The notes beneath the pieces were generated by a model. The model was given only the letters and a program-made list of their open reading frames with translations. It had not been told where the DNA came from and did not search any database. This document shows, in pieces, positions 17,339 through 54,492 of a stretch of DNA of 64,000 nucleotides (its first letter is position 1; each line of letters begins with the position of its first letter). Origin of the DNA: an uncultured Dehalococcoidales bacterium (lineage in GTDB: Bacteria; Chloroflexota; Dehalococcoidia; GIF9; UBA5629); the NCBI GenBank assembly GCA_964400675.1, contig CAYNVO010000001.1:139919-203918 (forward strand), in the 5' to 3' direction. Made by a program: the position numbers and the translations under genes.

Positions 17339-17469
17339 GTCATTCTGAGGGAGCGAAACGACCGAAGAATCTCAGGTGTGGGACACCGTGAGATTGCAAT
17401 GTGGAGTTTACAATGAGTGGAGATTCTTCGCTGCGCTCAGAATGACACGAGATGAAGAGCTCGCAATGA
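17339..17469. repeat. REP/MITE-like palindromic element, copy A (arms gtcattctgagggagcgaaacgaccgaagaatctc / gagattcttcgctgcgctcagaatgac, plus gctcgcaatgac half-site)
   Basis: Inverted repeat read directly; immediately 3' of hisS. Confidence 0.8.
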
Positions 17470-17502
17470 CTTAAGAATGAATGGATAGCCAGGAGGCAAG
17501 CA

Positions 17503-18270
17503 ATGGATGAAGTAATTATATCTAAGGCGATAGTGGAAAGCTATTTGAAAGACCTGCTCGGGTTTCTGGAGATGGATGTGGCGGTGGTAGGGGCTGGGCC
17601 GTCAGGCATGGTTGCCGGCTACTATCTGGCGAAGAGTGGTGTTAAGGTGGCTATATTTGAAAAGAAACTGAGCGTTGGCGGCGGCATGTGGGGTGGCGGC
17701 ATGATGTTTAACCGCATCGTGGTTCAGAGCGAGGGGAAGGAGATTCTGGATGAGCTGGGTATCTCCGCTGAGGAGTATCAAGATGGATATTACATAGCTG
17801 ATGCTGTAGAAGCAGTGTCAACCCTTTGTTCCCGGGCGATAAAGGCCGGGTCTAAGATATTCAATTTGCTCGGCGTTGAGGATGTTATGATTCGTGAGGG
17901 TGACAGAGTAACTGGCCTGGTATTAAACTGGAGCGCTGTGTCTCTGGCGAACCTGCATGTTGACCCGCTGGCTATAAGAGCTAAGCTGGTAATAGATGCC
18001 ACAGGTCATGATGCCGAGGTTTGCCGCATAGTGGCTAGAAAAACTGGAGCCGGGGTAGAAGTTATCGGTGAGAAGTCGATGTGGGCTGAAGTTGGCGAAA
18101 AGGAAATCGTGGCAAACACCAAACAGGTTTGCCCCGGTCTACTGGTTACCGGCATGGCAGCCAACGCTGTCTTCGGTGCGCCTCGTATGGGACCTATATT
18201 TGGCGGCATGATTCTTTCAGGCAGGAAGGTTGCTGAACTGGCTATAAATTTGCTGAAGCGAAATAAATAG
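17503..18270 (+). CDS. thi4: thiazole biosynthesis enzyme, Thi4 family
   Basis: 255 aa; [44 protein letters not shown] is the Thi4 FAD/NAD-binding signature. Confidence 0.85.
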
Positions 18271-18286
18271 CGGGTCGAATTTTTAT

Positions 18287-18404
18287 GTCATTGCAGGGGC
18301 GAGATTGACACTTGGAGTTTATCCTGAGCCAGATCCTTCGGTCGTCCTTCCCATTTGGGAAGGACTCTCTCAGGATGACAGAGGCGAAGGACTCGCAATG
18401 ACAG
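18287..18404. repeat. REP/MITE-like palindromic element, copy B (variant: outer gtcattgcaggggcgag / ctcgcaatgacag; inner atcctgag...ctcaggat)
   Basis: Nested inverted repeats, immediately 3' of thi4. Confidence 0.75.
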
Positions 18405-18437
18405 ATTGGATTTCAAGTTTTGAAGAGGTGAGGTGAT

Positions 18438-19643
18438 ATGGCAAAGACAATTGCTGAGATTAACGGAAAAATCAAAAAAGGTCAGGCGGTGGTAGTTACT
18501 GCCGAGGAAATAATTGATATCGCCAGGAAAAAGGGTGTCAGCCAGGCGGCTAAAGAAGTTGACGTGGTGACCACCGGAACATTCGGGCCGATGTGCGGCT
18601 CAGGCGCTTACTTTAACGTCGGGCATACCAAGCCGAGAATTAAGCTTGGTGGAGGCAAGGTCTATCTGAATGATGTTCCCGCCTATACAGGGATAGCCGC
18701 TGTGGATTTCTTTCTGGGGGCAACGGCTTTACCTGATGATGACCCCAAGAACAGAATCTATCCCGGCGAGTTCAGATACGGCGGCGGGCATGTAATAGAA
18801 GAGCTTGTAGCCGGCAAGGATGTCAGACTGGAGGCTGTTGCTTATGGCACCGATTGCTATCCCAGGAAAAAGCTGGAAACCTTGATTAATATCAAGGATA
18901 TAAACGAGGCGGTTTTATTCAATATGAGGAACGCCTATCAAAATTACAATGTGGCGGTGAACCTGTCCGACCGGATTATATATACCTACATGGGGGTGCT
19001 AAAACCGAAGTTGGGAAATGCCAATTACTCGACTTCCGGTCAGCTTTCCCCGTTGTTCAATGACCCGCATTATAAGACCGTAGGCATCGGTACCAAGATA
19101 TTTCTCGGCGGCGGCATCGGCTATGTTGCCTGGCAGGGAACACAGCATAACCCGAATGTTTTGCGGGGCGACAATGGAGTGCCAAAGAGAGGTGCCGGCA
19201 CGCTTGCCGTTATCGGCGACCTGAAGCAAATGAAACCCAAATGGCTGGTGGGCACGAGTTTTCTCGGCTATGGCTGCACGATGACTGTAGGTATTGGAGT
19301 TCCTATACCTGTTCTATCTGAAGAGATGCTCCGCTATACACTGGTGACAGATGCTGAGATTTTTGCCCCCGTGGTCGATTATGCCGAAGCTTACCCCCAG
19401 AGAAAGCCGGACATTCTGACCGAGGTTAGCTATGCCGAGCTAAAGAGCGGTGAGATTAAAGTTAAGGGTCAGGAAGTCCCCACTGCTTCTCTGTCCAGCT
19501 ATTCGAGAGCGGTGGAGATTGCCGGTATCTTGAAGGAGTGGATAAAGAAGGGCGAGTTCTTGTTGACTGAGCCGGTGACGCCATTGCCCGGTGTGGAATC
19601 GGGAATAGTCTTCAAGCCGCTTGAGGAACGTCCGCTTCCGTAA
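18438..19643 (+). CDS. COG1900/DUF39 homocysteine-biosynthesis protein (L-aspartate-semialdehyde sulfurtransferase-like, methanogen MA1821-type)
   Basis: 401 aa; the N-terminus MAKTIAEINGKIKKGQAVVVTAEE...VDVVTTGTFGPMCGSGAYFN is typical of the family. Followed by a NIL-ferredoxin partner. Confidence 0.75.
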   Translation: MAKTIAEINGKIKKGQAVVVTAEEIIDIARKKGVSQAAKEVDVVTTGTFGPMCGSGAYFNVGHTKPRIKLGGGKVYLNDVPAYTGIAAVDFFLGATALPDDDPKNRIYPGEFRYGGGHVIEELVAGKDVRLEAVAYGTDCYPRKKLETLINIKDINEAVLFNMRNAYQNYNVAVNLSDRIIYTYMGVLKPKLGNANYSTSGQLSPLFNDPHYKTVGIGTKIFLGGGIGYVAWQGTQHNPNVLRGDNGVPKRGAGTLAVIGDLKQMKPKWLVGTSFLGYGCTMTVGIGVPIPVLSEEMLRYTLVTDAEIFAPVVDYAEAYPQRKPDILTEVSYAELKSGEIKVKGQEVPTASLSSYSRAVEIAGILKEWIKKGEFLLTEPVTPLPGVESGIVFKPLEERPLP

Positions 19644-19658
19644 AAAAGGAGGGAGAAG

Positions 19659-20072
19659 ATGGCTACTGTTTCGAAAAGATTGGTTTTGCACTTTCCTAAG
19701 CGTTTAACAAACGAGCCTATAGTTTACAAACTGGTGAAAGATTTTGACCTTGAGTTTAATATCCTAAAGGCTTCAGTTACCCCCGGGGAGGAGGGGCTTC
19801 TGGTCATGGAATTAACCGGAGAGCAGAGGGGCTATGATAAGGGGGTGAAATACCTTACTGAGACCGGGGTGAAGATTCAATCCCTGAGCCAGGATGTGGT
19901 CTGGAATGAATCGAGATGTACTCATTGTGGTGCCTGCATTACTCTGTGTCCTACCGGGGCATTTTCTGTCGACCCGAAGACTCGAAAGGTAATTTTCGAC
20001 AATAGCAAATGCGTTGTCTGCGAGATGTGCATCAAAGCCTGTCCGCCTCGAGCCATGGAGCTGTATTTTTAG
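19659..20072 (+). CDS. NIL-domain protein fused to a 2x[4Fe-4S] ferredoxin (MA1822-type partner of COG1900)
   Basis: 137 aa; CTHCGACITLCP and CVVCEMCIKACP cluster motifs after an N-terminal NIL-like domain. Confidence 0.75.
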   Translation: MATVSKRLVLHFPKRLTNEPIVYKLVKDFDLEFNILKASVTPGEEGLLVMELTGEQRGYDKGVKYLTETGVKIQSLSQDVVWNESRCTHCGACITLCPTGAFSVDPKTRKVIFDNSKCVVCEMCIKACPPRAMELYF

Positions 20073-20112
20073 GGATTTACATCTATTAGGCTGGCCACAT
20101 GGCAAATTAGGC

Positions 20113-20275
20113 TGCCATTCTGAGCGTAGCGAAGAATCTATAGCATTGTTCAAAGCAGACCTGGAGAGGAGTTTAAGTCCCACTACCTTTAGCGGGTTAT
20201 ACAGTGTGAGATTCTTCGGTCGCTCCGCTCCCTCAGAATGGCAAAGGGGTGATTGGCTCCCTCAGAATGACAAAG
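20113..20275. repeat. REP/MITE-like palindromic element, copy C (gccattctgagcgtagcgaagaatct ... agattcttcggtcgctccgctccctcagaatggc, plus ctccctcagaatgacaaag)
   Basis: Inverted repeat read directly. It explains the spurious N-terminal extension (CHSERSEESIALF) of ORF 20014. Confidence 0.8.
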
Positions 20276-20295
20276 GGCGAGAATGGTGTTCTAAC

Positions 20296-21018
20296 ATGTA
20301 CCAGCCGAGGACTTATCGTTGCTGGATTAAAGACGACGATTTAGTTTCCTTCGATGTTGCCGTTAAGGAGACCGACCTCTATATTCGAGCGGCAGGCAAG
20401 CTCGAAGCCGAAGCCATAGAAGCGGTCATAAGACACCGCACGCCGCTTGAAGAGTATATCAAAAATCACCCGCTTTTCCTCCATAGTTTGGAGCCTTGTT
20501 CTGTTGAGGAGGATGCTCCGGCTATTGTCAGAGATATGGCACAGGCTGCCCGGATAGCCGGCGTTGGTCCGATGGCAGCCGTGGCTGGAGCTATTGCTGA
20601 GGCTGTGGGCAAAGACCTGCTTGCCCATACGCCGGAGGTAATCGTCGAAAATGGCGGTGATATTTTTATCAGGGTTTTGCGACCCAGGCTGATTGGTGTT
20701 TATGCCGGTGAATCGCTCTTTACGGGCAAAATTGCCCTGGAGATAAATCCCGAGGAAACACCTCTGGGTGTCTGCACTTCTTCGGGAACTGTGGGACATT
20801 CGCTCAGCCTTGGCGCTGCTGATGCTGTGATTGCATTTTCACGTTCTACGGCGCTGGCTGATGCTGCGGCTACGGCAATCGGTAATAGAGTGGGTGATGC
20901 CGAGGATATCGATGTGGCCGTTGAGCAGGCTCAGGATATCAATGGACTGGCTGGCATACTCGTAATAAAAGGCGATAGGATGGGCATGTGGGGCAGCGTG
21001 AAGCTGGTGTCTCTATGA
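20296..21018 (+). CDS. UPF0280/COG2122-like protein (ApbE-superfamily, uncharacterised)
   Basis: Internal ATG start after the repeat element. VGPMAAVAGAIAEAVGKDLL...IVENGGDIF is typical of UPF0280. Confidence 0.55.
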   Translation: MYQPRTYRCWIKDDDLVSFDVAVKETDLYIRAAGKLEAEAIEAVIRHRTPLEEYIKNHPLFLHSLEPCSVEEDAPAIVRDMAQAARIAGVGPMAAVAGAIAEAVGKDLLAHTPEVIVENGGDIFIRVLRPRLIGVYAGESLFTGKIALEINPEETPLGVCTSSGTVGHSLSLGAADAVIAFSRSTALADAAATAIGNRVGDAEDIDVAVEQAQDINGLAGILVIKGDRMGMWGSVKLVSL

Positions 21019-21044
21019 GTGGGTACAACAGCATGTGAAGCTGT

Positions 21045-21722
21045 TTAGAATCCACCGCCGCAGCAAGCCACTGTAAACACAACGGATGCCTCAGCCTTAT
21101 CACCTCTACCATCAGTTACCAAGACAGTGACCGTGCAGTCGCCGGGAACACCGGGTGAAGTCCATCCAACCGTGCTTCCCTCTCCGTTAATTTTGCCACA
21201 CGTGGCTCTCCACAGATAATTTAGCTGGTCGCCATCCGGGTCCTCGGCTCTGCAATGAACGGTTATTGTTCTCCATTCCCTGACTCGATTCTGTTCGGTC
21301 ACCGGGGTTCCGTCTCTTGTTAGACCGATAATGACCGGAGGCTGGTTGGGCTTGTCTATAACAGTTATGGTCGTATACTTGCTGGTAGTACCACCCTTGT
21401 CATCTGTTACCGTGACCTCAACGTTGTAGTTGCCGGCAGTATCAGGCGTGACCCAGGTGATACTGCTGCCCTCTCCTTTGATAGTTCCGCTATCAGCCGA
21501 CCACTGATATGCCAGGCCGTCGCCATCGGCGTCGCTGGCTTCACAGGTTATCTGGGTTTCCGATAGAGTGGGAACCTCCTGTTCCGCTGTCAGGGAACTA
21601 ATGATGGGTGGTTCGTTTGGTGGTGGAGCTGGCGGAATCGGTGGAGCTGGTGGTAGAGTTGGTAAACAGGCGCTGTTTAATAGCAGCGCAGGGGTAAGCA
21701 ACAAAATGATTAACCCGGACAT
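21045..21722 (-). CDS. secreted protein with a signal peptide, a Pro-rich linker and two PKD/Ig-like repeats
   Basis: MSGLIILLLTPALLLNSACLP signal-like N-terminus; PPAPPIPPAPPPNEPP linker; two repeats with D.DGD..Y.W. Confidence 0.55.
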   Translation of the reverse strand: MSGLIILLLTPALLLNSACLPTLPPAPPIPPAPPPNEPPIISSLTAEQEVPTLSETQITCEASDADGDGLAYQWSADSGTIKGEGSSITWVTPDTAGNYNVEVTVTDDKGGTTSKYTTITVIDKPNQPPVIIGLTRDGTPVTEQNRVREWRTITVHCRAEDPDGDQLNYLWRATCGKINGEGSTVGWTSPGVPGDCTVTVLVTDGRGDKAEASVVFTVACCGGGF

Positions 21723-21763
21723 ATATTTTGCTGGCGATGTGTTCCATCTAATGTATATCATAT

Positions 21764-22324
21764 TTATTCCTTTTTGTCTTTATCCCCGGCTCCTTGTCCC
21801 AGTTTATTCAACCATGGCGGCGAAGACAGAAAGCCGCCGGGGTGCACAAATATTATAGTCATTGCCAGGGCAAAAAGCACAATATCGATAGCGAGAGATT
21901 GTACATGTGTGAGCGTGCCGAACATCTCTTCCCATATACCGAAGCATGCGCAGGAAGCGAATTTCATCCAACCATGGCTAATATACCATGAGTTATTGGC
22001 TATAAAGGCTATAATAAGCGGAAGTGATATAGCTGCCATGAGGCGAGGCCAGATGCTCAAAAGGAGAAGCATGCCCAGTGATAGTTCTACATAGGGGATA
22101 ATATAGGGGAACAAGATATCACCAAAAAAGAGTGCCACTTTAGGTGTTAGCCAGGCATTCGGCAGAATGGCACCGATGAACTGCATGGTCTGGCCGGGCA
22201 TCTCACCGAAACCGAACACCTTACCGCTACCTGCTATGAGCAGAGTAAGCCCCAGCAGTACGCCGGCTACCAGGCTTACCATTGACCTCACCCTATGGTG
22301 GCTTGCTTCAGTAGTATTTGACAT
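21764..22324 (-). CDS. DoxX/MauE-like integral membrane protein
   Basis: 186 aa with 4-5 hydrophobic helices. A 2-bp gap to the downstream secreted protein suggests an operon. Confidence 0.5.
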   Translation of the reverse strand: MSNTTEASHHRVRSMVSLVAGVLLGLTLLIAGSGKVFGFGEMPGQTMQFIGAILPNAWLTPKVALFFGDILFPYIIPYVELSLGMLLLLSIWPRLMAAISLPLIIAFIANNSWYISHGWMKFASCACFGIWEEMFGTLTHVQSLAIDIVLFALAMTIIFVHPGGFLSSPPWLNKLGQGAGDKDKKE

Positions 22325-22548
22325 AACATCGGTCCCCAGCTAGTTGTGCTGGACTTGACTAGTTCACTATTATAAATTACACTAGCTATTGTATGCAAAA
22401 ACCTGGCTGGTGCCGTTTCCTAGCTCGGCTTCCTCTTATAGTGGGGAGACCAGCTTGCCGGGGTATTCTTTGCGGCAACTTATATAGAGGTCTTGAGCCG
22501 TTAGAGACAGCAACAGAGACAGGGCATAACTTTCATAAGGAGGCATAG

Positions 22549-22842
22549 ATGGCTCTAGCGGACAAGACTTTGACTTGTAAAGACTGCGGTAGTAGCTTTA
22601 CTTTTACCGTAGGCGAGCAAGAGTTTTACAAGTCACGAGGGCTACAGAATGAGCCTGGTCGGTGCCCAGAGTGCCGAGCAGCTAAAAGACAGAGTCGCTA
22701 CCGGGGCTATGGTCAGCCCAGGGTTATGCATCAAGCAACATGTGCCAAATGTGGCGCTGATTGCGAGGTGCCTTTTGAGCCCAAAGATGACCGTCCCATT
22801 TATTGTAGCGCTTGCTACGCGGAAATGAAACAAAGTAGCTAA
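22549..22842 (+). CDS. CxxC zinc-ribbon protein (paralog 3; double zinc ribbon)
   Basis: 97 aa; LTCKDCGSSFTFTVGEQEFYKSRGLQNEPGRCPECRAAK plus a second ribbon CAKCG...CSAC. Confidence 0.6.
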   Translation: MALADKTLTCKDCGSSFTFTVGEQEFYKSRGLQNEPGRCPECRAAKRQSRYRGYGQPRVMHQATCAKCGADCEVPFEPKDDRPIYCSACYAEMKQSS

Positions 22843-22854
22843 AATAGCCCGATA

Positions 22855-22894
22855 CCCCTCTCAACAGTCTCCCCGCTGAGAGGGGTGTTTTTTT
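22855..22894 (+). terminator. rho-independent terminator (cccctctca...tgagagggg + tgttttttt)
   Basis: 9-bp GC-rich stem followed by a T7 tract immediately after the stop at 22842. Confidence 0.8.
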
Positions 22895-22929
22895 AATAGG
22901 CTGGTTTACCCGTAAGCTGTTCTGAAAAA

Positions 22930-23223
22930 ATGAATGCTGGTATTTGCAGGATAAAACTTCACCTTTCGGATAGTCAATCGCTCAAGGATAAAAGACGAGT
23001 AGTGAAATCTATTACCTCTAGGCTTCGGAGTCAGTATAATATCTCTGTAGCAGAGGTAGATGACCAGGATTTGTGGCAGCTGGTGACCCTGGGAATAGCT
23101 TGTGTTAGCAACCATAACCAGCATGTTGAGGAGATTTTATCCAAGGTGATGAATTTCATAGTCAATAATTACCCCGAGCTGGAAATTATAGACCACCAGA
23201 AAGAGATTTTTTCCGGTCCATAG
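22930..23223 (+). CDS. DUF503 (YlxP-like) protein
   Basis: 97 aa; GICRIKLHLSDSQSLKDKRRVVKSI matches the DUF503 N-terminal signature. Confidence 0.7.
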   Translation: MNAGICRIKLHLSDSQSLKDKRRVVKSITSRLRSQYNISVAEVDDQDLWQLVTLGIACVSNHNQHVEEILSKVMNFIVNNYPELEIIDHQKEIFSGP

Positions 23224-23247
23224 CCTGTAGCCGTTTAAACGATTTCA

Positions 23248-25530
23248 ATGTATGTTGAAGCTTTCCTGCACCACCTCTTGACTTCACCTGATTATAAGCA
23301 GCAGATTGCTCACACCCAGTTTATTCCGTCGCATAATGCCACTTTTGGAGAAATAGATAAGCCTCTCCATTCTGCTCTGCAAGCATGTCTAGAGTCTTCA
23401 GGTATATCGTCTTTGTATACTCATCAAGCCGGGGCTATTAACGCAGCTCGTCTTGGCAAGAATGTAATGGTGGCTACAGCCAGCGCCAGCGGCAAGACAC
23501 TGTGCTATAACCTGGCGGTCATGGAGGCTATACTAAAAGACTCAAGCAGTCGGGCTTTGTATCTTTTCCCGACCAAGGCTCTGGCACAAGACCAGCTGCG
23601 AAGCTTGAACGAGCTAGCTTGCCCTGAGCTTATTTCTTCCGGGAGCTGCGCTACGTTTGATGGTGATACGCCGCAATCTGAGCGGGCTGAGATAAAAAAG
23701 AAAGCCCGGGTCGTGCTCACCAATCCCGACATGCTTCATTTGGGCATTTTGCCTAATCATAAATCATGGTCGAGGTTATTTCGTAACTTGAAATATGTTG
23801 TAGTGGATGAAGCTCATGTCTATCGTGGAATTTTCGGTTCTCATGTAGCCAATGTTTTGCGTCGTCTGCGTCGCCTTTGCGCCTATTATGGCTCCAGGCC
23901 ACAGTTTATTTGTTGTTCGGCGACTATCGCCAACCCTGAAGAGCATGCTGAAAAGCTCGTTGGGCTACCTTTCGAGGTAATCACTGATGATGGTTCGCCT
24001 CACGGTGGCAAGTCCTTTGTCTTCTGGAATCCGCCGTTTATTAATGAGAAGGGGACGGGCAGGCGCAGCTCCAATAGCGAAGCTACCTTTCTTTTCACTG
24101 AACTAGTTCGAAATGGCATTCGTAGCCTGGTTTTTACCCGAACCCGAAAGCTGACCGAACTCATTTACATTTATACTCGGGAGCAACTGGGTTCTTCTCT
24201 TGGTCAGCTAATCAAGCCTTATCGGGCGGGTTATCTTCCCGAAGACAGGAGACAGATTGAGCGGGAGTTGTTCGATGGTCATCTACTGGGTGTTGTGGCT
24301 ACCACTGCCTTGGAACTGGGGGTTGATATCGGTGACCTGGAAGCTACCGTGCTTGTCGGTTACCCGGGAAGTATTGCCAGCACCTGGCAGCAGGCAGGTC
24401 GTAGCGGCAGAGGTGCTGGACAATCTTTGAGCTTTCTTATTGCTCAGGACAATCCGCTCGACCAGTATTTTATGCACCACCCGGATTACTTCTTCGGCAA
24501 AAACTTTGAGAATGCATTGATAAACCCGGAAAACCTTAATATTCTCAAGCCCCATCTTCTTTGCGGCGCCTGGGAGCAGCCCCTTACCGATGTTGATGGC
24601 GCGCTATTTGGTGCTGCCTTCGATTTAGCGCTCTCTGAACTGGAAGCGGAGGGCAAGGTTAGAAGAAGCGGTGGGCGGCGGTATCTTTCTCCCAGAATAT
24701 CGCATCCAGCCCAGGAGATTAATATCAGGTCTGCCTCCGGTAAGAATTACGCTGTTATCGATGCCTCTCGAGGCTACGAGTTAATAGAGACAGTAGAAGC
24801 CAGCGTTGCCTTTTTCCAGATACATCCCGGAGCTATTTATCTTCATCAAGGAGATTCTTATTTGGTGAAGGAGATGGACCGTGAGAATCACGTGGCTATA
24901 GTGGTACCGACCGATGTCACTTATTACACGCAGACCAAGGAAATAACTGACATCAAGATTTTAAGAACTGAGCAGGAGAGACAATGCTCGGGCGTAAAAG
25001 TCTGCTTTGGTGAAGTTGATGTAACCAATACAGTGGTCGGTTTCAAGAAGAAAATGCAGTTCACGGAAGAGGTCATTGGTGAGGAGTCTCTTGACCTGCC
25101 GCCACTGCGTTTTGTCACACAGGCTTTGTGGTTTGAATTGCCCGAGGCAGCCATTGAGCGAGTAGCTGGAGCCGGGTTTGATTTTGCTGGCGGCTTGCAT
25201 GCTGTTGAGCATGCGGCTATTGCCATGTTGCCTCTGTTTGCCCTGTGTGACCGCAATGATATCGGTGGTGTCTCTACTCCCTTCCATCCTGATACGGGGA
25301 AGGCACAAATCTTTATCTATGATGCTTATCCCGGAGGCATTGGTATTACGGCAAAGGGCTTTGAGATGATAAATGAACTATGGTCAGCTACGTTGCAGGC
25401 GATTGAGGAATGTCCCTGCCAGGATGGCTGTCCTAGCTGTATCCAATCGCCCAAGTGCGGCAACAACAACGAGCCACTGGATAAGCAAGCAGCTCTGGCG
25501 TTGCTGCAGGGACTGCTGGGCATCAAGTGA
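23248..25530 (+). CDS. DEAD/DEAH-box helicase with C-terminal DUF1998 (MrfA/YprA-like; related to the DISARM DrmA+DrmB domain pair)
   Basis: 760 aa; Walker A ATASASGKT, DEAH-like VVDEAH, and C-terminal Cys cluster CPCQDGCPSCIQSPKCGNNNE (DUF1998/MrfA zinc-binding domain). Confidence 0.85.
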   Translation: MYVEAFLHHLLTSPDYKQQIAHTQFIPSHNATFGEIDKPLHSALQACLESSGISSLYTHQAGAINAARLGKNVMVATASASGKTLCYNLAVMEAILKDSSSRALYLFPTKALAQDQLRSLNELACPELISSGSCATFDGDTPQSERAEIKKKARVVLTNPDMLHLGILPNHKSWSRLFRNLKYVVVDEAHVYRGIFGSHVANVLRRLRRLCAYYGSRPQFICCSATIANPEEHAEKLVGLPFEVITDDGSPHGGKSFVFWNPPFINEKGTGRRSSNSEATFLFTELVRNGIRSLVFTRTRKLTELIYIYTREQLGSSLGQLIKPYRAGYLPEDRRQIERELFDGHLLGVVATTALELGVDIGDLEATVLVGYPGSIASTWQQAGRSGRGAGQSLSFLIAQDNPLDQYFMHHPDYFFGKNFENALINPENLNILKPHLLCGAWEQPLTDVDGALFGAAFDLALSELEAEGKVRRSGGRRYLSPRISHPAQEINIRSASGKNYAVIDASRGYELIETVEASVAFFQIHPGAIYLHQGDSYLVKEMDRENHVAIVVPTDVTYYTQTKEITDIKILRTEQERQCSGVKVCFGEVDVTNTVVGFKKKMQFTEEVIGEESLDLPPLRFVTQALWFELPEAAIERVAGAGFDFAGGLHAVEHAAIAMLPLFALCDRNDIGGVSTPFHPDTGKAQIFIYDAYPGGIGITAKGFEMINELWSATLQAIEECPCQDGCPSCIQSPKCGNNNEPLDKQAALALLQGLLGIK

Positions 25531-25547
25531 CCTATTGATATTCTGCT

Positions 25548-25714
25548 GTCATTCTGAGCGAAGCGAAGAATCCCTACATTTGAAATTCTTCGGTCACTTC
25601 GCTCGCTCAGAATGACAAGAGAAGCTACTGAGATTGCCACGTCGCTGGCGCTCCTCGCAATGACAGGGAAAGAAGGCGAAGATTGTTTTGTTGGGGTGCT
25701 CCTCGAAACGACAG
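25548..25714. repeat. REP/MITE-like palindromic element, copy D (near-perfect hairpin gtcattctgagcgaagcgaagaat...attcttcggtcacttcgctcgctcagaatgac, plus two cgcaatgacag / cgaaacgacag half-sites)
   Basis: Inverted repeat read directly, 3' of the helicase gene. Confidence 0.85.
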
Positions 25715-25719
25715 ATATA

Positions 25720-25748
25720 TTGCTAATGCAACAATGTTGCATTAGCAA
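25720..25748. promoter_or_regulatory. perfect 14-1-14 palindrome ttgctaatgcaaca-a-tgttgcattagcaa; putative Zur/Fur-family operator upstream of zur-znuABC
   Basis: Palindrome read directly, 25 bp upstream of the Fur-family regulator gene. Confidence 0.55.
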
Positions 25749-25772
25749 TAGTGATATTATAAAATTGAGCCT

Positions 25773-29703: not shown

Positions 29704-29787
29704 GTCATTCTGAGCGAAGCGAAGAATCTGGCTGAAGGCAAACTCTCTGAGAAATGCAGAGACCCTTCGCTGTCGCTCAGGGTGACA
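29704..29787. repeat. REP/MITE-like palindromic element, copy E
   Basis: gtcattctgagcgaagcgaagaatctgg ... ccttcgctgtcgctcagggtgaca, 3' of ftsY. Confidence 0.8.
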
Positions 29788-44248: not shown

Positions 44249-44322
44249 ATATTTACCTGTCGCCCTGAGCAATAGCGGATGGTCTCGGGATTTTTCGCGG
44301 CGGTTGTCCTGATAATTGTTGT

Positions 44323-44482
44323 GAGATTCTTCGCTCCGCTCAGAATGACAGGTTGGAGGGTTCAGAATGACAGGTTGGAGGGTTCAGAATGACAGGTTGG
44401 AGGGCTCAGAGTGACAGATGGGAAGGGCTCGGAATGACAGACGGGAGAGGGTGCAGAGAGGCAGACGGGAGGGGCTTAGAAT
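44323..44482. repeat. REP-like right arm (gagattcttcgctccgctcagaatgacag) followed by about 7 degenerate tandem copies of its 22-bp half-site (gttcagaatgacaggttggagg)
   Basis: Tandem array read directly, 3' of the MBL gene. Confidence 0.85.
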
Positions 44483-44491
44483 GACGGGCAG

Positions 44492-46006: not shown

Positions 46007-46152
46007 AAATCCGCAGATTTCCTCATCTTATCCCACCCTACTAACCTTCCCAGTCCCATAAGATAGAACTATTTTCTAGAACACAATCACTTCCCAAGTC
46101 AGCCAAACCGTGTCATATTGGGTGTAGACCATTTTGGTCTAGGAGGTGCGCT

Positions 46153-47835: not shown

Positions 47836-47862
47836 GTCTGTTCGTAGCTTTTAAATCGAGGT

Positions 47863-47898
47863 AAAGCGGTGGCTCCATGAGCCACCGCTTTATTTTTG
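47863..47898 (+). terminator. rho-independent terminator (aaagcggtggctc...gagccaccgcttt + atttttg)
   Basis: 12-bp stem plus T-tract after the GH3 stop. Confidence 0.8.
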
Positions 47899-48019
47899 CT
47901 TATGGATACGTTAGTTCAATGATATTCGTTATCGTTGGTTAAATTATGTATCTTGACAACCTGCATAGCTAGAGACATAATAAGACAATTCTTAAATATG
48001 GTGAAGTAGAAGATTCTAA

Positions 48020-51000
48020 ATGAACACATACTCTTTAATCCCCTTGGCTGCCGCGATTGCATTCATACCGTTACTCGTTATTTTAATTTTTAACCGCCCC
48101 TGGCAAAAACAGCATAAGCTTCTGTTCTGGTATCTGTTAGCGACCATTCTGTGGAGTATGACAGATTTCTTCTTCCGCGGTGATTTTCTCTTAGAATACA
48201 AGCTTTTGTTGGCTAAGGTGGGTCTATGGTTTGGGCTCCTGAGCGCAATCCAATATCTTTATATTGTCCGGTATTTTTCTAAGGTTCAATGGTTTAGGAT
48301 TCATTTTATTTACTTTCTGCTGTTGGTGCTTACTGTTCTAGAAGTGCTTGACTATGTCCCTAGAGGGATTGCTGTTACTGCTAGCGGCGTTCATGTTCAG
48401 TACGGTATCTGGTTTATACTTGTAGCTCTGGCCTTATTCATTGCGGTTAGTGCAGACTTGTATTTTTTAGTGAGTAGACTCGTTCGTTCAAAAAATCCAG
48501 AAGAACGCAATCAAACTAGCTATTTATTAGCGGGTGTCTCGGTTCTCTCTATATGTGTTTTCGCCTCTTTCATACCTGATGTGGGGAAATTCCCGCTAGC
48601 CCTTGTTGGCAATTTATCCAATGCTGCCATTTTGACTTATGCTGTTTTGAGGCATCGCTTATTGGATATCAATATCGTTTTCCGCCGAGTGCTAGCCTGG
48701 GCAGGTCTGATTGCTGCTGGCATCGGTATCTATGTGCTTTTGTTGTTCTTGATACACTGGATTACTGGTGTCAAATTGGATGGGCGTATTTTAGCCCTGA
48801 GCACACTGGCGGCAGCAGCTGTCGGTATCAGTGTTTATCTGTTGCAAAAGTTCTTTCTACGGAGTGCAGACCGATTTTTCTATAGAGCGCGGTATGATTA
48901 CCGTCAGAGGCTGCATGACTTTGTGAATCGGGAATTAAGCGGTGTTTTTAGCCTGAGGGAGTTGAGTGAAAGATTGCTGCCGTTGCTTTCCGGGGCATTG
49001 GATTGCAAGCAGACAATTTTATTACTTCCGGACCCGGGAAGTGGCGATTTTATTGCTGAGTTTAGCCTGTCTCAATCCGAAGATGTTTCACCGCTGATAA
49101 TAAAAAAAGATAATCCAGTTATGGAGTGGCTGAAGCGAGAGAATAGATACCTGAGCAAAGAAAATCTGGATATACTGCCTGAATTTCGCGGTATTTGGGC
49201 TGAGGAAAAAGAGGGGCTGGAAGCTCTGGACATGGAATTGCTGTTTCCTCTGATAAACCGCGGCAATTTGATTGCTGTGTTGGCTTTAGCCAAAAATAAA
49301 TCTGGCAGATATTCGCTCGAGGACGTCAATCTGGTTGATACTGTCACCTCTCAGGTGGCAGCAAGTCTGGAGAAAGAATATCTCCAGGAACAGCTAAGGA
49401 AGCGGGAGCAGGAGCTGGCTTTGATTAACCGGCTGACCGCAGTCATTATTTCCAGTTTGAATATACGAGAGGTATATGATGCCTTTATCACAGGGTTGAG
49501 GGAGGTGGTTAACATTGATTGGGCGACGATTGCCCTGATAGAAGGTGACGAGCTTAGTTTAGAGGTTTTGTCCACGGAGGTGGGCTCGGCGTGGGGAGCG
49601 GGGGAAAAGATGCCACTTAAGGGTACAGGCACCGAGTGGGTAGTCAAACATAAAAAGGCTTTGTTCGAGCCTGACCTAAAGAAAAAGAAGAGGTTCTGGA
49701 CAGGTGAGGAACACTTAAAGCGGGGAATCAGGTCAGTAGTTTACCTTCCATTACTGGTAAGGGGACAGGCGATAGGCAGTTTGATTATAGCCAGCCGTAA
49801 ACCGAATGCTTACACTCCCGGTCAGGTACACCTTCTGGAGCGTCTGGCTTCTCAGATTGCCATGCCGGTGGAGAACAGTCGGCTTTATGCCAGAGCCGAG
49901 CAGAGGGCTCGGATCGACGAGCTTACGAACTTGTTCAACCGCCGTCACTTCGATGAACGTATAAAACAGGAGATTGAGCGTCATGCTCGTTACAGGGGGA
50001 TGCTGTCTTTGGTTCTTCTCGACCTTGATTTCTTCAAGGCCTACAATGACACACAGGGGCATACGGCTGGTGACAAGATTCTGGAATTGATAGGCAAGTT
50101 GATTAACAAGACTATAAGGAATACCGACCTGGCTTTTCGTTATGGTGGTGATGAGTTTGCTATCATACTACCGCAATCGGCGACTAATGATGCTCTTGTG
50201 GTAGCCGAGAGGGTTCGGGGTAGGATTGCATCCGAGATGAGCAAGAGGGATATCAGGATAAGTGCCAGTCTTGGCTTAGCATCGTGGCCCAACGATGGAG
50301 TTACAACTGAAGAGCTTGTAAATGCGGCTGACAGGGCGTTGTATTATGCTAAGGAGACGGGAGGCAATATGACTTGCATTGCCTCCAAGATGCTGCCTTC
50401 TCTAACTGAGATGTCTAATAATAGAGTAACAACTGAAAGAGAGGTGCTGAGCATCATCTATAACTTAGCGGCAACTATCGAAGCCAGGCACCCGTATATT
50501 TATGGTCATTCACGTAAGGTTAGCGGCTATGCTGTAGCACTGGCTGAAGCTGTTGGTTTACCCGCGGAGAAAGTGGCTTTAATCGGCACGGCGGCTTTGC
50601 TTCATGACATTGGCAAAGTAGGCATTCCCGACGAGGTGCTTAATAAGGCTGGTAAACTTGAGGCTGAAGCATGGGAATTGATTAAATCGCATCCTAAATT
50701 GTCAGCAACTATAGCCGGTCACGTGGTCAGTTTAATTGCTTGTCTTCCAGCTATCCTCCATCATCATGAGCGATGGGATGGTGGCGGCTACCCGGACAGG
50801 TTAGAGGGTGATGCTATCCCCATCGAGGCTCGTATTTTGTCTTTGGCTGATGCCTTTGATGCCATGACGTCTTCCCGACCATATCGTGGTAAGATGTCCT
50901 ATAAGAAAGTACTGCAAGAACTCAAGCATTGTGCTGGCACTCAATTTGACCCGAAGCTGGTTGAGGCGTTCTTGCCCATTGCTTTATCTACGGCTCCGGA

Positions 51001-51049
51001 GGAAGCGGGAGTAGGGGAAGACAGCGGCAGCACAAAAACAGATTCATAG
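48020..51049 (+). CDS. membrane sensor protein: N-terminal multi-pass (7TM-like) domain - GAF - GGDEF diguanylate cyclase - HD-GYP phosphodiesterase
   Basis: 1009 aa; RYGGDEFAIIL (GGDEF); C-terminal HDIGK...HHHERWDGGGYP (HD-GYP); about 7 N-terminal TM helices. Confidence 0.85.
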   Translation: MNTYSLIPLAAAIAFIPLLVILIFNRPWQKQHKLLFWYLLATILWSMTDFFFRGDFLLEYKLLLAKVGLWFGLLSAIQYLYIVRYFSKVQWFRIHFIYFLLLVLTVLEVLDYVPRGIAVTASGVHVQYGIWFILVALALFIAVSADLYFLVSRLVRSKNPEERNQTSYLLAGVSVLSICVFASFIPDVGKFPLALVGNLSNAAILTYAVLRHRLLDINIVFRRVLAWAGLIAAGIGIYVLLLFLIHWITGVKLDGRILALSTLAAAAVGISVYLLQKFFLRSADRFFYRARYDYRQRLHDFVNRELSGVFSLRELSERLLPLLSGALDCKQTILLLPDPGSGDFIAEFSLSQSEDVSPLIIKKDNPVMEWLKRENRYLSKENLDILPEFRGIWAEEKEGLEALDMELLFPLINRGNLIAVLALAKNKSGRYSLEDVNLVDTVTSQVAASLEKEYLQEQLRKREQELALINRLTAVIISSLNIREVYDAFITGLREVVNIDWATIALIEGDELSLEVLSTEVGSAWGAGEKMPLKGTGTEWVVKHKKALFEPDLKKKKRFWTGEEHLKRGIRSVVYLPLLVRGQAIGSLIIASRKPNAYTPGQVHLLERLASQIAMPVENSRLYARAEQRARIDELTNLFNRRHFDERIKQEIERHARYRGMLSLVLLDLDFFKAYNDTQGHTAGDKILELIGKLINKTIRNTDLAFRYGGDEFAIILPQSATNDALVVAERVRGRIASEMSKRDIRISASLGLASWPNDGVTTEELVNAADRALYYAKETGGNMTCIASKMLPSLTEMSNNRVTTEREVLSIIYNLAATIEARHPYIYGHSRKVSGYAVALAEAVGLPAEKVALIGTAALLHDIGKVGIPDEVLNKAGKLEAEAWELIKSHPKLSATIAGHVVSLIACLPAILHHHERWDGGGYPDRLEGDAIPIEARILSLADAFDAMTSSRPYRGKMSYKKVLQELKHCAGTQFDPKLVEAFLPIALSTAPEEAGVGEDSGSTKTDS

Positions 51050-51218
51050 CATTTATCTTACTTTAGCCAGTGCCTGCTCCTGCGGATAAATTCTAAATCC
51101 GAATGATTTTTTTGTTGCCACGCATTTCCGCAATTATGGGCGAATAACCCGTTTTTACCCTCTTGACAACCTTCAGGGCTGAGTACATAATTAGTCAAAC
51201 GTAGTAAAGCTGAGGCTG

Positions 51219-53687
51219 ATGAATATCTACGCTATACCTCCTCTATTGGCAGCCATTGCCTATATCCCATTGCTTGCTATCCTGCTGGCTAATCGACCCT
51301 GTAACAGACAGCAGAGGCTTTTTGCCTGGTTTCTAATCGCTGCCGTACTCTGGAGTGGCAGTGACATCCTCTTCCGCGGCGATTTCTTTATGCAAGATAA
51401 GTTTCTCCTGGCTAAAGTTGTTGCCTGCACTTTCACCTTAGCAGCGGCGCAGTTACACTGCTTTATATCCTCCTACTATCCTCCAAATAAGGGCCGTTGG
51501 CTGCCCCTAGCCTATGCTTCGTTAGCCATCATGATATTCTTGGTAGCGATGGGCTATGTTCCTAAAGACGTTATTGTTACCGGTAACAAAATGTACCTCG
51601 TGTATGGCAATGGTGTTTTCTTAATGGGGTTGCCTCTGGCTATCCTGACGGTCAGAAGTGTACACATTTTATGGCAGCAGTTTCGAACTTCAGACGACCC
51701 GGTACTGCGTAACCAGATGGTTTATCTATTATTGAGTATTGGCATTTTGGTTGCCGCCGTGTTTACAGTTTTCATTCCCTGGGGAAATGAAGTTCCGATT
51801 AGCCACATTGGAAATTTAATCAACGCTGTTATTCTGAACTATGCTGTACTCAGACATCGTTTATTAGATATCAAGGTTGTTTTCCGCCGTGGGCTAGTCT
51901 GGGTAGGTTTAATCGCTGTCAGTATAGGTCTCTATCTGGCTTTGTTTCTATTAATCCACTCTTTTACTGGCATCGAGTTAGATATAATCACCTTAGCTCT
52001 GGCTACACTGGCAGCAATTGCTATAGGTGGTGGTGTTTATCTGTCGCAGAGTTTCTTTTCCAGAGGTGCAGACCGGCTTTACTATAGAGCGCGGTATGAT
52101 TACATTCAGAGACTGCGCATTTTCCTGAGGAATGAATTAAGCGGCGTTCTTAGCCTGAGGGAGTTGATTAAGGAATTGCTGCCATTGCTTACCGGGGCTT
52201 TGGATTGCAGGCAGGTATACTTATTGTTGCCAGACTCAGGGGGTGGCGACCTCGTTGTACAGTTTTCTGAACCAAAAAGGGATGATGTTCCGCAAGTGAG
52301 ATTGATGTGGGACAATCAAGTTTTGGGATGGTTGCGCCGAGAAAATAGATACCTGCTTAAGGAAAGCCTGGATATCAACCCTGAATTTAGCGGTATGCGG
52401 GGTGAGGAAAAAGATTGGCTAAAAGACCTGGATGTGGAATTACTATTTCCTGTGGTAAGCCGTGGCAGCCTTATTGGCGTATTGGCGCTAGGCGAAAAGG
52501 AATCCGGCAAGTACTCGCTTGAAGATGTCAATCTAGTCGAGACTGTCATAACTAAGGTAGCCGTAAGTGTAGAGAAGGAATATCTTCAGGAGGGACTCAG
52601 AAAGCGGGAGCAAGAATATCTTCAGGGAGAACTTAGAAAGCGGGAGCAAGAGCTAGACCTGATTAACCGGCTGGCTATAGTTATTACCTCCAGTTTAAAT
52701 ATACGAGAGGTATATGATGCCTTTATCACAGGGTTGAGGGAGGTGGTTAACATTGATTGGGCGACGATTGCCCTGATAGAAGGTGACGAGCTTAGTTTAG
52801 AGGTTTTGTCCACGGAGGTGGGCTCGGCGTGGGGAGCGGGGGAAAAGATGCCACTTAAGGGTACAGGCACCGAGTGGGTAGTCAAACATAAAAAGGCTTT
52901 GTTCGAGCCTGACCTAAAGAAAAAGAAGAGGTTCTGGACAGGTGAGGAACACTTAAAGCGGGGAATCAGGTCAGTAGTTTACCTTCCATTACTGGTAAGG
53001 GGACAGGCGATAGGCAGTTTGATTATAGCCAGCCGTAAACCGAATGCTTACACTCCCGGTCAGGTACACCTTCTGGAGCGTCTGGCTTCTCAGATTGCCA
53101 TGCCGGTGGAGAACAGTCGGCTTTATGCCAGAGCCGAGCAGAGGGCTCGGATCGACGAGCTTACGAACTTGTTCAACCGCCGTCACTTCGATGAACGTAT
53201 AAAACAGGAGATTGAGCGTCATGCTCGTTACAGGGGGATGCTGTCTTTGGTTCTTCTCGACCTTGATTTCTTCAAGGCCTACAATGACACACAGGGGCAT
53301 ACGGCTGGTGACAAGATTCTGGAATTGATAGGCAAGTTGATTAACAAGACTATAAGGAATACCGACCTGGCTTTTCGTTATGGTGGTGATGAGTTTGCTA
53401 TCATACTACCGCAATCGGCGACTAATGATGCTCTTGTGGTAGCCGAGAGGGTTCGGGGTAGGATTGCATCCGAGATGAGCAAGAGGGATATCAGGATAAG
53501 TGCCAGTCTTGGCTTAGCATCGTGGCCTAGCGATGGTGTGGCAACTAACGAACTTATCAATGCGGCTGACAGGGCGTTGTATTATGCTAAGGAGACGGGA
53601 GGTAATCGGACCTGTATTGCCTCCAAGATGTTGCCTTCTCCGACCGGGAAGGCTACTACGAGAGCTAAATCGAAAGACAAAATTTGA
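51219..53687 (+). CDS. membrane sensor diguanylate cyclase: 7TM-like domain - GAF - GGDEF (paralog lacking HD-GYP)
   Basis: 822 aa; identical GAF-GGDEF block to the upstream paralog; internal 11-aa duplication EKEYLQEGLRKREQEYLQGELRKREQE. Confidence 0.85.
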   Translation: MNIYAIPPLLAAIAYIPLLAILLANRPCNRQQRLFAWFLIAAVLWSGSDILFRGDFFMQDKFLLAKVVACTFTLAAAQLHCFISSYYPPNKGRWLPLAYASLAIMIFLVAMGYVPKDVIVTGNKMYLVYGNGVFLMGLPLAILTVRSVHILWQQFRTSDDPVLRNQMVYLLLSIGILVAAVFTVFIPWGNEVPISHIGNLINAVILNYAVLRHRLLDIKVVFRRGLVWVGLIAVSIGLYLALFLLIHSFTGIELDIITLALATLAAIAIGGGVYLSQSFFSRGADRLYYRARYDYIQRLRIFLRNELSGVLSLRELIKELLPLLTGALDCRQVYLLLPDSGGGDLVVQFSEPKRDDVPQVRLMWDNQVLGWLRRENRYLLKESLDINPEFSGMRGEEKDWLKDLDVELLFPVVSRGSLIGVLALGEKESGKYSLEDVNLVETVITKVAVSVEKEYLQEGLRKREQEYLQGELRKREQELDLINRLAIVITSSLNIREVYDAFITGLREVVNIDWATIALIEGDELSLEVLSTEVGSAWGAGEKMPLKGTGTEWVVKHKKALFEPDLKKKKRFWTGEEHLKRGIRSVVYLPLLVRGQAIGSLIIASRKPNAYTPGQVHLLERLASQIAMPVENSRLYARAEQRARIDELTNLFNRRHFDERIKQEIERHARYRGMLSLVLLDLDFFKAYNDTQGHTAGDKILELIGKLINKTIRNTDLAFRYGGDEFAIILPQSATNDALVVAERVRGRIASEMSKRDIRISASLGLASWPSDGVATNELINAADRALYYAKETGGNRTCIASKMLPSPTGKATTRAKSKDKI

Positions 53688-53707
53688 GCATAATCCATGC
53701 TCAGGAG

Positions 53708-54358
53708 TTACCGTTTTTTGGCCAGGACGCATATATTCCGAGAGAAGAACTTGAATGGGAAGCGGTAAGATTTCTCCGGGAAGATGCTGATAATCTCAAA
53801 GCCAACCTCGTTTAATAAGCTGCGGAGTTCCGGATAGGAAAAGAGGTAGTAATAGCGGTAAAAGACTTTCCTCCTCGATTTCCAGGGTATATTGACCTCT
53901 TTGCTTTTTAGCCAGAAGCCTGGTTGCCATTTGTTCCAAACGGTGATAAAGGCTTCACCTCCTGGCTTCAGAACACGCCTAAGTTCCTGGAAAGCCTTTT
54001 GTCTTTGCTTTTCTCCCTTGATGTGGTGGTAGGCGGCTACTGCTATTGCCTTGTCGAAGTTGTTATCGGGGTAGGGCAAAGATATAGCATCGGCTACCAT
54101 CAGATTTACTTTAAAGTCGAACTTGTCGGCATATTTCTGTGCCAGTCTGACCATTTGTGCAGAAAAGTCCACTCCCCACAGCTCAAACCGGTCTTTGAAA
54201 GGCAGGAAGTCCGGTCCGTGAGCACAACCGATGTTCAAGAGCTTGCCCGTGTGCCATCTGCGTGCCATCTCCTCAAGCTCTTTGGTGAAGCGAGACCAGT
54301 GCCTGAATCGGTACCAGCTCCCGGCTATTTCGTCGAATATTTCTCTGTTTGTTGACAT
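53708..54358 (-). CDS. class I SAM-dependent methyltransferase
   Basis: LLNIGCAHGPD (motif I) ... VLKPGGEAFI. Confidence 0.8.
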   Translation of the reverse strand: MSTNREIFDEIAGSWYRFRHWSRFTKELEEMARRWHTGKLLNIGCAHGPDFLPFKDRFELWGVDFSAQMVRLAQKYADKFDFKVNLMVADAISLPYPDNNFDKAIAVAAYHHIKGEKQRQKAFQELRRVLKPGGEAFITVWNKWQPGFWLKSKEVNIPWKSRRKVFYRYYYLFSYPELRSLLNEVGFEIISIFPEKSYRFPFKFFSRNICVLAKKR

Positions 54359-54436
54359 AGTTATAATTTGCTAAACTCTGATGGGGTGAGTTCAGTAATT
54401 ATAAATTATACTTGTAATTAAAGGCTCTTCACACTC

Positions 54437-54492
54437 TGCCATTCTGAGCGAAGCGAAGAATCTGGAGACCTTTCGCTACCACTCAGGGTGAC
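54437..54492. repeat. REP/MITE-like palindromic element, copy G
   Basis: gccattctgagcgaagcgaagaatctgg ... cctttcgctaccactcagggtgaca. Confidence 0.8.

Follow-up and report, generated by a model that had tools for sequence, protein, structure and literature searches.

Probable Ssn-related hairpin motifs with a G·A mismatch between the genes of an uncultured Dehalococcoidales bacterium

Introduction

A stretch of 64,000 nucleotides from an uncultured Dehalococcoidales bacterium (NCBI GenBank assembly GCA_964400675.1, contig CAYNVO010000001.1, positions 139,919 to 203,918; hereafter the window) carries a family of short palindromic repeats in the spacers between its genes. What are these repeats, and do they act as RNA or as DNA? 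A first-pass annotation had described them at seven loci between 17339 and 54492 as hairpin-forming elements that resemble repetitive extragenic palindromic (REP) sequences or miniature inverted-repeat transposable elements (MITEs), compatible with roles as terminators or mRNA stabilisers. The repeats are confirmed at all seven loci and lie far above chance. For example, the canonical 25-mer GTCATTCTGAGCGAAGCGAAGAATC is matched six times in the window with up to three mismatches (0.00 expected from shuffles), the outer box YTCAGRRTGAC is matched 13 times (0.24 expected), and a strict structural definition returns nine window units compared to 0.12 in shuffles of the 64 kb. The repeats are probably Ssn-related motifs (SRM) of the TGTC-tagged REP type, forming a sub-type with G·A mismatches, and the evidence for this assignment comes from the fold of the repeat unit and from its association with genes for small GIY-YIG nucleases in other genomes.

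The repeat unit and its fold

Each arm of the elements is a self-folding unit of about 25–45 nt, rather than merely half of one long palindrome. The unit is laid out as a T-GTC tag, a 5-nt stem, GA, an inner stem-loop that is usually GCGAAGC, a second GA, the complementary 5 nt, and a C. As such, the stem is broken by a tandem G·A/A·G mismatch and comprises nine positions when these two are included, with a GAA loop and a C-T-C tail, while the inner stem-loop varies in length (GCGAAGC, GGCTGCTTTGCAGCC, GGCCCGCTCGGCGGGCC and others). The tag is nearly invariant: GTC is present in 34/34 units and is preceded by T in 33, and it is followed by A (33/34) and a pyrimidine (34/34). In the window the tag reads TGTC or TGCC. 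The first stem pair is A-T in 31/33 units and the second is T-A in 23 and C-G in nine of the 33. The C after the palindrome is found in 34/34 units and in 10 of the 11 confident window units, the unit at 25584–25616 having a T.

Covariation supports this fold. The unbiased pattern GTCANNNNGAGCGAAGCGANNNNTC, scanned on IMG/VR, returned 112 distinct sites, and the two N4 blocks are fully complementary in 103 of these, with 10 Watson-Crick variants including TTCT/AGAA, TCCT/AGGA, TTCC/GGAA, TGTT/AACA and TCCC/GGGA. Similarly, when 33 units from the flanks of ssn genes are aligned, both sides have changed in six of the seven pairs and 98% of cells are paired, compared to 18–50% when the partners are slid; these 33 units were chosen for pairing, and the IMG/VR scan is the clean test. 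A comparison of G·T with A·C asymmetry for the strand that folds gave no clear bias.

In the window the units are arranged as head-to-head dimers with their tags outward, five of them clear and two decayed (18287–18402 and 44259/44325). All five clear dimers are heterodimers, in which the central stem-loop or the stem is not the same in both units, and where partners differ, the change is compensated inside each unit and not between the units. This is seen at 29704, where ATTCT is joined to the ACCCT/AGGGT unit at 29761, and in two loci from elsewhere (L055 and L058), where ATTCT is joined to ATGCT/AGCAT. It is thus the fold of the unit that has been conserved. Furthermore, 123 of 176 seed arms have no recognisable right-arm partner inside 200 nt, and the partners that exist often differ in the centre. 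Since both the partner and the central stem-loop are variable, the arm is a self-contained hairpin. The long stems described in the first-pass annotation need qualification on this point: the dimers do fold, but their stems are imperfect because each clear dimer joins different units.

Relation to known repeat families

The tagged REPs are a superfamily with a CGTC tag, 'changed to TGTC ... in many repeats', with stems of 8–9 bp that start with A/T pairs, loops of 4–5 nt and a CCA tail. They form head-to-head dimers with spacers of 20–100 bp, are frequently heterodimeric, and lie just past upstream open reading frames (ORFs); five phyla are listed, and the members include dRS3 of Neisseria and RPE-4 and RPE-6 of Rickettsia (PMC3733652). 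The units described here have in common with them the terminal TGTC tag, the head-to-head dimers with spacers of 20–100 bp and the frequent heterodimers, and their stem also has 8–9 positions and mostly starts from A-T, if the mismatched pairs are counted. They also share the position between unidirectional or convergent ORFs near the upstream stop codon, the lack of a linked transposase and, in some copies, an in-frame location or spurious ORFs. The REP-like class proposed at first reading is thus borne out, as the units match the TGTC/CGTC-tagged superfamily in their head-to-head dimers, extragenic location and bias to the 3' side of genes. In contrast, the stem of the published tagged REPs is uninterrupted and ends in the 4–5-nt loop and CCA, where the units here have G·A/A·G, the GAA of GCGAAGC, and C-T-C. 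Their phylum range also differs, with at least 15 phyla for the G·A sub-type.

REP doublets of another class, the GTAG-tagged REPs of Pseudomonas and E. coli, are mobilised as REPINs by RAYT, a transposase of the Y1 HUH superfamily, and a RAYT had also been put forward as the partner of the window repeats. The architecture is indeed the same, with short palindromes in inverted doublets, singlets and clusters (PMC3733652; PMC3116915), and both kinds of repeat show singlets as decayed doublets and a bracketed single-copy gene. However, the tag here is TGTC and not GTAG, and the bracketed gene encodes a GIY-YIG nuclease and not an HUH Y1 enzyme. Moreover, ORF clustering over 155 repeat-bearing loci found no recurrent mobility gene, only generic families and one phage capsid module, and thus no Y1/RAYT gene or other transposase-like family that recurs near the repeats. 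REPIN populations are lineage-specific, whereas the 25-mer is common to many phyla, and CGTC-type REPs are reported not to be linked to transposase genes (PMC3733652). Mobilisation by a RAYT is, as a consequence of these differences, highly improbable.

The comparison with Neisseria is more informative. About half of the dRS3 copies are a directional sequence of 28 nt, the NTS (CGTCATTCCCGCGMAVGCGGGAATCYRG). The 94-aa GIY-YIG protein SsnA binds the NTS only as single-stranded DNA (ssDNA), and its cut falls a few bases upstream; cutting is under the control of the three bases that precede the palindrome, while the C after the palindrome controls binding and is the most important base for it (PMC11893778). 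Homologs of ssnA are bracketed by SRM across phyla (PMC11893778). An SRM is an imperfect palindrome of 20–50 nt that folds on one strand, with a directional 5' flank HGTC-W-Y. At the tag, the A/T-start stem and the 3' C, the consensus of our units, TGTCATTCTGAGCGAAGCGAAGAATCTC, matches the NTS base for base, and the invariant T-GTC and 3' C are the very positions that govern cutting and binding by SsnA in Neisseria. In both cases the element is a directional hairpin with a 5' (C/T)GTC-AT tag, a stem starting with A/T and an invariant C past the palindrome, it is extragenic and multi-copy, and in other genomes it lies on both sides of a gene whose product is a GIY-YIG protein with one domain and about 94 aa (SRM-ssn-SRM). 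The window sub-type differs in the tandem G·A/A·G mismatch of its stem and in its centre, a mini stem-loop of its own whose length varies. Its host range, with Chloroflexota, Acidobacteriota, the candidate phyla radiation (CPR), Bacillota and others, also extends beyond the mainly Pseudomonadati hosts emphasised in PMC11893778.

Other known elements were also considered. Rfam, at gathering thresholds and with permissive settings, returned tRNAs and generic noise from miRNA hairpins only, with no known RNA family that fits, and a full-text literature search for the 25-mer or its peptides found no match. A hammerhead-like or k-turn-like reading of CUGA...GAA was rejected because the core does not fit and both an NGA and a 3-nt bulge are missing. 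Integron attC sites were rejected for lack of an R-box, and a CRISPR array was likewise rejected.

Association with Ssn-type nuclease genes

In two loci from other genomes, L030 and L041, a GIY-YIG ORF of about 95 aa is enclosed by two copies of the same 25-mer. Using these two proteins as queries in metagenomes, 80 loci with Ssn-homolog genes were obtained. At one further locus, L236, the 25-mer of the window is likewise present on both flanks of the Ssn homolog. A strict unit lies within 200 nt upstream of the gene in 46 of 75 loci, downstream in 48 of 73 and on both sides in 35 of 68, and unit density is 4.9/kb near the gene compared to 0.11/kb more than 1 kb away, a 45-fold enrichment. The unit-associated proteins, of about 95 aa, match Pfam GIY-YIG only. 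NCBIfam and PDB offer no specific model or structure for an Ssn-like protein, the best PDB match being the UPF0213 protein BH0048 (E 2e-4).

With tblastn against plasmid and chromosome records, homologs were found in Sinorhizobium, Azospirillum, Novosphingobium and Sphingobium, genera with species on the CGTC host list of Di Nocera (PMC3733652), and one gene was also found in N. gonorrhoeae (E 1e-11; pairwise E 1e-20). The gonococcal homolog is 94 aa long, is 40% identical to the L041 protein and lies between canonical NTS copies, eight of them within 1 kb. As the tblastn value is below E 1e-10, the criterion of PMC11893778, the proteins beside the G·A-type units are Ssn homologs.

One such homolog is found on a Planktothrix agardhii plasmid (NZ_LR882964.1, 18450–19513; L310), where it is annotated as a 'GIY-YIG nuclease family protein'. 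It is 62% identical to the L041 protein and sits between an MmeI-type restriction-modification gene and the DISARM gene drmA. The setting is a defence island, with G·A-type units and three half-sites of 23 nt in tandem on the flanks of the gene.

A proposed action on single-stranded DNA

The unit, 25–45 nt long, is a hairpin with a defined direction and forms on one strand of the DNA. A mechanism can be proposed by analogy with the Neisseria NTS. Whenever the tag strand becomes single-stranded, at a replication fork or in DNA that enters by transformation or conjugation, its hairpin and 3' C would be bound by a small GIY-YIG nuclease of the Ssn family with a single domain, which would go on to cut the strand a few bases to the 5' side of the GTC tag. 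The head-to-head layout in the window, with tags outward and one on each strand, is the same as that which brackets ssn genes elsewhere, and since this layout is shared, the gene-less dimers would most simply be non-autonomous copies of the SRM-ssn-SRM module. Extra units and 22-bp half-site arrays build up to the tag-outer side of a unit, the same side on which Ssn cuts. GCGAAGC and Py-GA-Pu tandem mismatches are unusually stable in DNA, and this stability fits a role as ssDNA. We infer that an enzyme of this family acts on the copies of the source organism and that its cutting drives the expansions.

Several points weigh against this assignment. A jackhmmer search of the window found no Ssn or GIY-YIG gene, nor is there one in the 81 kb of the source contig that the analysis covered, the 17-kb flank through gene tables, and the cognate enzyme of the source organism is therefore putative. 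The published SRM sequence, HGTCWYN(0-2)YYVSBRHN(0-5)WNVSBRGN(0-2)RNCYNB, has 0 matches in the window (shuffles 0–2). It also matches 0 of the 80 Ssn-homolog loci, while the NTS control sequence does match; the units are missed because the pattern requires G/C at its S positions, which are occupied here by the G·A pair. By nearest-neighbour DNA parameters, the folding energy of a single unit is only -1.9 kcal/mol, which does not surpass that of shuffles, and that of the dimer hairpin is about -23 kcal/mol as DNA (z -5 to -7), so that the dimer would compete with unit folding. In addition, the sole established biological role of Ssn is the modulation of natural transformation in Neisseria, which may not apply to the source organism.

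If the assignment holds, it bears on a nuclease family that was characterised only in 2025 and whose published motif pattern misses the G·A sub-type entirely. One clade of Ssn homologs is tightly associated with the sub-type, which as judged from sequence would offer an enzyme and site pair with a new specificity, the tandem G·A-mismatch hairpin.

Position relative to genes and the RNA alternative

The alternative already contained in the first-pass annotation is that the repeats are REP-like RNA elements, in which the dimer hairpin is co-transcribed with the upstream gene and serves as a terminator or as a barrier to 3' exonucleases. Six of the seven window clusters lie in unidirectional spacers and start 10–41 nt past the stop codon of a co-directional gene, and the clusters fold as RNA at -25 to -62 kcal/mol. 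On the + strand only, two right units can join their partners by G·U pairs. The same argument has been made for tagged REPs (PMC3733652). The claim that every copy follows a stop codon nevertheless holds for six copies and fails for the seventh (54437–54492). This copy occupies a divergent promoter region, with the start of Elp3 on one side and, on the other, the start of a methyltransferase gene on the minus strand (53708–54358, supported by Pfam).

In 120 loci among the matches listed from a genome scan (described below), 155 of 191 classified units lie outside ORFs and 36 inside, although the intergenic share of these loci is only about 21% of sequence by a crude ORF map. The spacers that hold the 155 units are unidirectional in 88 cases, convergent in 48 and divergent in 19, a 3'-side bias that agrees with an RNA element but may just mirror where insertions are tolerated. 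In contrast, single units are oriented 45:43 with respect to transcription, which weighs against such a role. No U-tract follows any copy in the window, the bases past the right units being ACAAG, ACACG, ACAAT and ACAGG, and of the 15 terminator-like sites in 16.5–30.5 kb, none falls on the sense strand of an element. Moreover, the invariant unpaired bases (GTC, the 3' C and GA/GA) and the compensation within units point to recognition of a single strand by a protein, since a terminator needs neither of them, and in Neisseria SsnA does not bind the RNA form of the NTS (PMC11893778). On this evidence, a primary function as RNA is unlikely compared with the assignment to Ssn-related motifs, with which an RNA-level side-effect of a 3'-end hairpin may coexist.

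Spread across genomes

The genome scan used the 25-mer degenerate at two positions, GTCATTCYGAGCGAAGCGARGAATC, and matched at least 120 genome stretches among metagenome-assembled genomes and isolates. The matches listed come from at least 15 phyla, among them Nitrospirota, Planctomycetota, Acidobacteriota, Ignavibacteria/Bacteroidota and Patescibacteria (Gracilibacteria, Saccharimonadales and Roizmanbacteria), as well as Bacillota, Gemmatimonadota, Chloroflexota, Armatimonadota, Nitrospinota and 'delta proteobacteria', and also Pseudomonadota, Cyanobacteriota, Verrucomicrobiota and Campylobacterota. The host range of the 25-mer is wider than that emphasised in PMC3733652 or PMC11893778. A BLAST search of plasmids with the dimer gave few matches, in Planktothrix, Calothrix and Granulicella.

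The exact 25-mer is also present in 35 viral contigs. Eleven related IMG/VR contigs have a capsid module in common (L001, L004, L005, L009, L012, L016, L021, L025, L026, L034 and L035), and each of them carries the exact 25-mer at a different position. In another contig, L028, a phage ORF may extend further upstream, and a unit lies in the reading frame of this possible extension.

Half-site arrays and growth at the tag boundary

The first-pass annotation had noted an amplification of the right half-site at the sixth locus into about seven tandem 22-bp copies. The array is real: Tandem Repeats Finder (TRF) reports at 44338–44485 a period of 22 with 4.6 copies at 90% identity, and also a period of 44 with 3.3 copies, and seven half-sites are readable by eye. 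The locus is more than a right half, however, as a decayed left unit is present at 44259–44284. Each repeat of the array consists of the tag, the 5' half of the stem and a spacer that is purine-rich on the + strand. The first three repeats are identical and the later ones are decayed.

The source DNA comes from metagenome contigs of JGI samples 3300028156, 3300005645, 3300028619 and 3300029689 and of ENA assemblies ERZ27248962 and ERZ27248965. A second assembly of the same population (L308) is identical to the window over 4.5 kb save for one 22-bp repeat fewer in 44338–44403, which on the assembled sequences could be either real copy-number variation or assembly collapse. Half-site arrays with a period of 19–27 bp recur in many phyla and are always on the tag-outer side of a unit; in the window, extra units and half-sites are always on the right side. 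Similarly, compared with the near-identical ssn loci L276 and L272, L277 (3300–3450) has about 140 nt of extra unit-bearing DNA next to ssn, exactly at the ...GCAATGACA| tag boundary (...AATGACA|). Both the differences in array length and this addition are compatible with growth where Ssn cuts, a step that would remain conditional, as an error of short-read assembly is possible. One metagenome contig (Ga0077109_1001358; L224) ends at window position 20240, inside the element at 20113–20275, and the repeats appear to break metagenome assemblies.

Arrays of this kind also bear on a possible DDE transposon origin. The repeats would then be MITEs whose TGT...ACA terminal inverted repeats are bound as double-stranded DNA, with the 22-bp subterminal repeats as transposase-binding sites in the manner of Tn7 or Mu. 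The ends do read TGTCA...TGACA, and the spacing of the half-sites, every 19–27 bp in many phyla, is about two helical turns. However, the MITE half of the first-pass annotation is not supported: each end is an independently covarying hairpin, as expected of a single-stranded fold, and no target-site duplication is visible at the seven loci. Moreover, the units also occur as singlets, no DDE transposase recurs nearby, and about 2 Mb of repeat-bearing loci showed no full-length element that carries a DDE transposase between ends of this kind. A DDE transposon origin is thus very hard to credit, as much so as mobilisation by a RAYT.

Returning to the reading as Ssn-related motifs, a bolder version of it would take the G·A unit and its Ssn clade as a selfish module (unit-ssn-unit) of very broad host range, in which dimers are non-autonomous and arrays are the scars of cutting and repair. 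It is favoured by the presence of the 25-mer, almost unchanged, in viral contigs and at least 15 phyla, by the 22-bp length polymorphism and by the insertion exactly at the tag boundary. We view it as possible although doubtful. If true, Ssn would be a GIY-YIG-based system of ssDNA transposition or expansion, beyond a restriction-like nuclease. The dimers, singlets, half-site arrays and insertion polymorphism also form a data set on how such repeats multiply.

There are practical consequences for annotation as well. The units are a common source of junk ORFs (of the VILSEAKNL, HSERSEES and RFLASLGMT types), false N-terminal extensions and metagenome contig breaks, and recognising them improves annotation. 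For example, the warning that the arms are translated into spurious peptides was justified: a gene caller places the start of AbpE/UPF0280 at 20296, and junk ORFs of 31 aa and 37 aa lie in the 44338 array.

Repeats of the window

A covariation model of the unit (R1), run over the window without filters, reports 11 units at E<=1e-3, with hits starting at 17334, 20109, 25543, 29699 and 54433 on the + strand and at 17417, 20205, 25579, 29756, 44320 and 54462 on the - strand. Weaker hits are found at 25627, 18331 and 44254, together with one within the 22-bp array. In the 17 kb of the source contig that flank the window, no further units were found.

The first dimer starts 14 nt past the hisS stop codon, with its left unit GTCATTCTGAGGGAGCGAAACGACCGAAGAATC at 17339–17371 on the + strand (R1 17334–17376, E 3e-6) and its right unit GTCATTCTGAGCGCAGCGAAGAATC at 17422–17446 on the - strand (E 1.1e-10), next to which there is an extra half-site CTCGCAATGAC (17460–17470). 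The second cluster, 18287–18402 (inverted repeat I4), is a decayed composite. It begins with a degenerate ATTGC-type left unit at 18287, continues with a right unit that has a long inserted stem-loop (18332–18379, tag on the - strand; partial R1 hit 18331–18376, E 0.48) and ends in a half-site CTCGCAATGAC at 18392–18402. In the third dimer, 41 nt past the stop codon of the NIL-ferredoxin gene, the left unit GCCATTCTGAGCGTAGCGAAGAATC has the tag GCC (20114–20138, +; E 1.8e-7), the right unit is GCCATTCTGAGGGAGCGGAGCGACCGAAGAATC (20210–20242, -; E 4.5e-4), and an extra half-site lies beside the latter at 20261–20271.

The fourth dimer, 17 nt past the helicase stop codon, joins a canonical unit (25548–25572, +; E 2.6e-10) to GTCATTCTGAGCGAGCGAAGTGACCGAAGAATT, the unit with T for the 3' C (25584–25616, -; R1 25579–25621, E 1e-3). 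Two stretches to its right had been taken for variant half-sites, but they are complete decayed units of other sub-types, both on the - strand: an ATTGC-type unit at 25632–25664 (R1 25627–25669, E 0.29) and a GTTTC-type unit at 25681–25712, the latter read from the letters only. The fifth dimer again has a canonical left unit, 20 nt past the ftsY stop codon (29704–29728, +; E 1e-10), and its right unit is the ACCCT/AGGGT stem variant GTCACCCTGAGCGACAGCGAAGGGTC (29761–29786, -; E 2.8e-8).

At the sixth locus, the decayed left unit GTCGCCCTGAGCAATAGCGGATGGTC (44259–44284, +) lies 10 nt past the stop codon of the MBL gene and gives a weak R1 hit (44254–44289, E 5.6). The right unit is GTCATTCTGAGCGGAGCGAAGAATC (44325–44349, -; E 3.5e-10), and the tandem array of about seven half-sites with a period of 22 bp, also on the - strand, lies at 44338–44486. 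The seventh dimer, in the divergent spacer, comprises GCCATTCTGAGCGAAGCGAAGAATC (54438–54462, +; E 4.8e-8) and GTCACCCTGAGTGGTAGCGAAAGGTC (54467–54492, -; E 8.8e-4). A possible relic unit, GTCATACTAGACGAAACGAAGAACC, lies between two minus-strand genes at 61208–61232 (-); it is doubtful, with no R1 report at E<=10.

The identities given earlier to the neighbouring genes were correct, as judged by Pfam hits for the source contig and by hmmscan. These hits cover hisS, Thi4, HcyBio, NIL-ferredoxin, AbpE/UPF0280 and the DEAD/MZB helicase, and further along the window Fur, FtsY, Lgt, the MBL-fold protein, the methyltransferase and Elp3.

Two other sequences accompany the repeats. A second recurrent module, GGAGTTTAYCCTGAG or its complement, is found in the dimer spacers at 17395–17415, 18306–18331 and 20165–20180, and also inside the central loops of units from other phyla (L004 and several of the L227–L306 units). 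It may be another small repeat that travels with the units. Directly after the fourth cluster, at 25718–25750, there is a perfect palindrome of 16+16 nt, TATTGCTAATGCAACA / TGTTGCATTAGCAATA, which ends 22 nt before a Fur-family gene (25773) and looks like a candidate operator of this regulator.

Other features of the window

Further repeats lie apart from the family described above. An 87-bp tandem repeat at 13056–13253 (2.3 copies, 86% identity), each copy with a doubled 11-mer AGCTACGAACT, is located inside a gap of 661 nt without a long ORF. A 120-bp tandem repeat at 5772–6118 (2.9 copies, 96% identity) is a charged coding repeat within the ORF 5721–6209. The gene at 10226–12100 on the - strand encodes a SIR2_2-domain protein of 622–624 aa, adjoins a 46-aa DUF5679 gene and is possibly a defence gene. 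Finally, two 12-mers recur at an equal spacing of 189 nt, at 49851–50051 and 53089–53289, in the neighbouring large genes 48020–51049 and 51219–53687. The second of these genes has GAF and GGDEF domains, and the shared spacing suggests that the two may be tandem paralogues.

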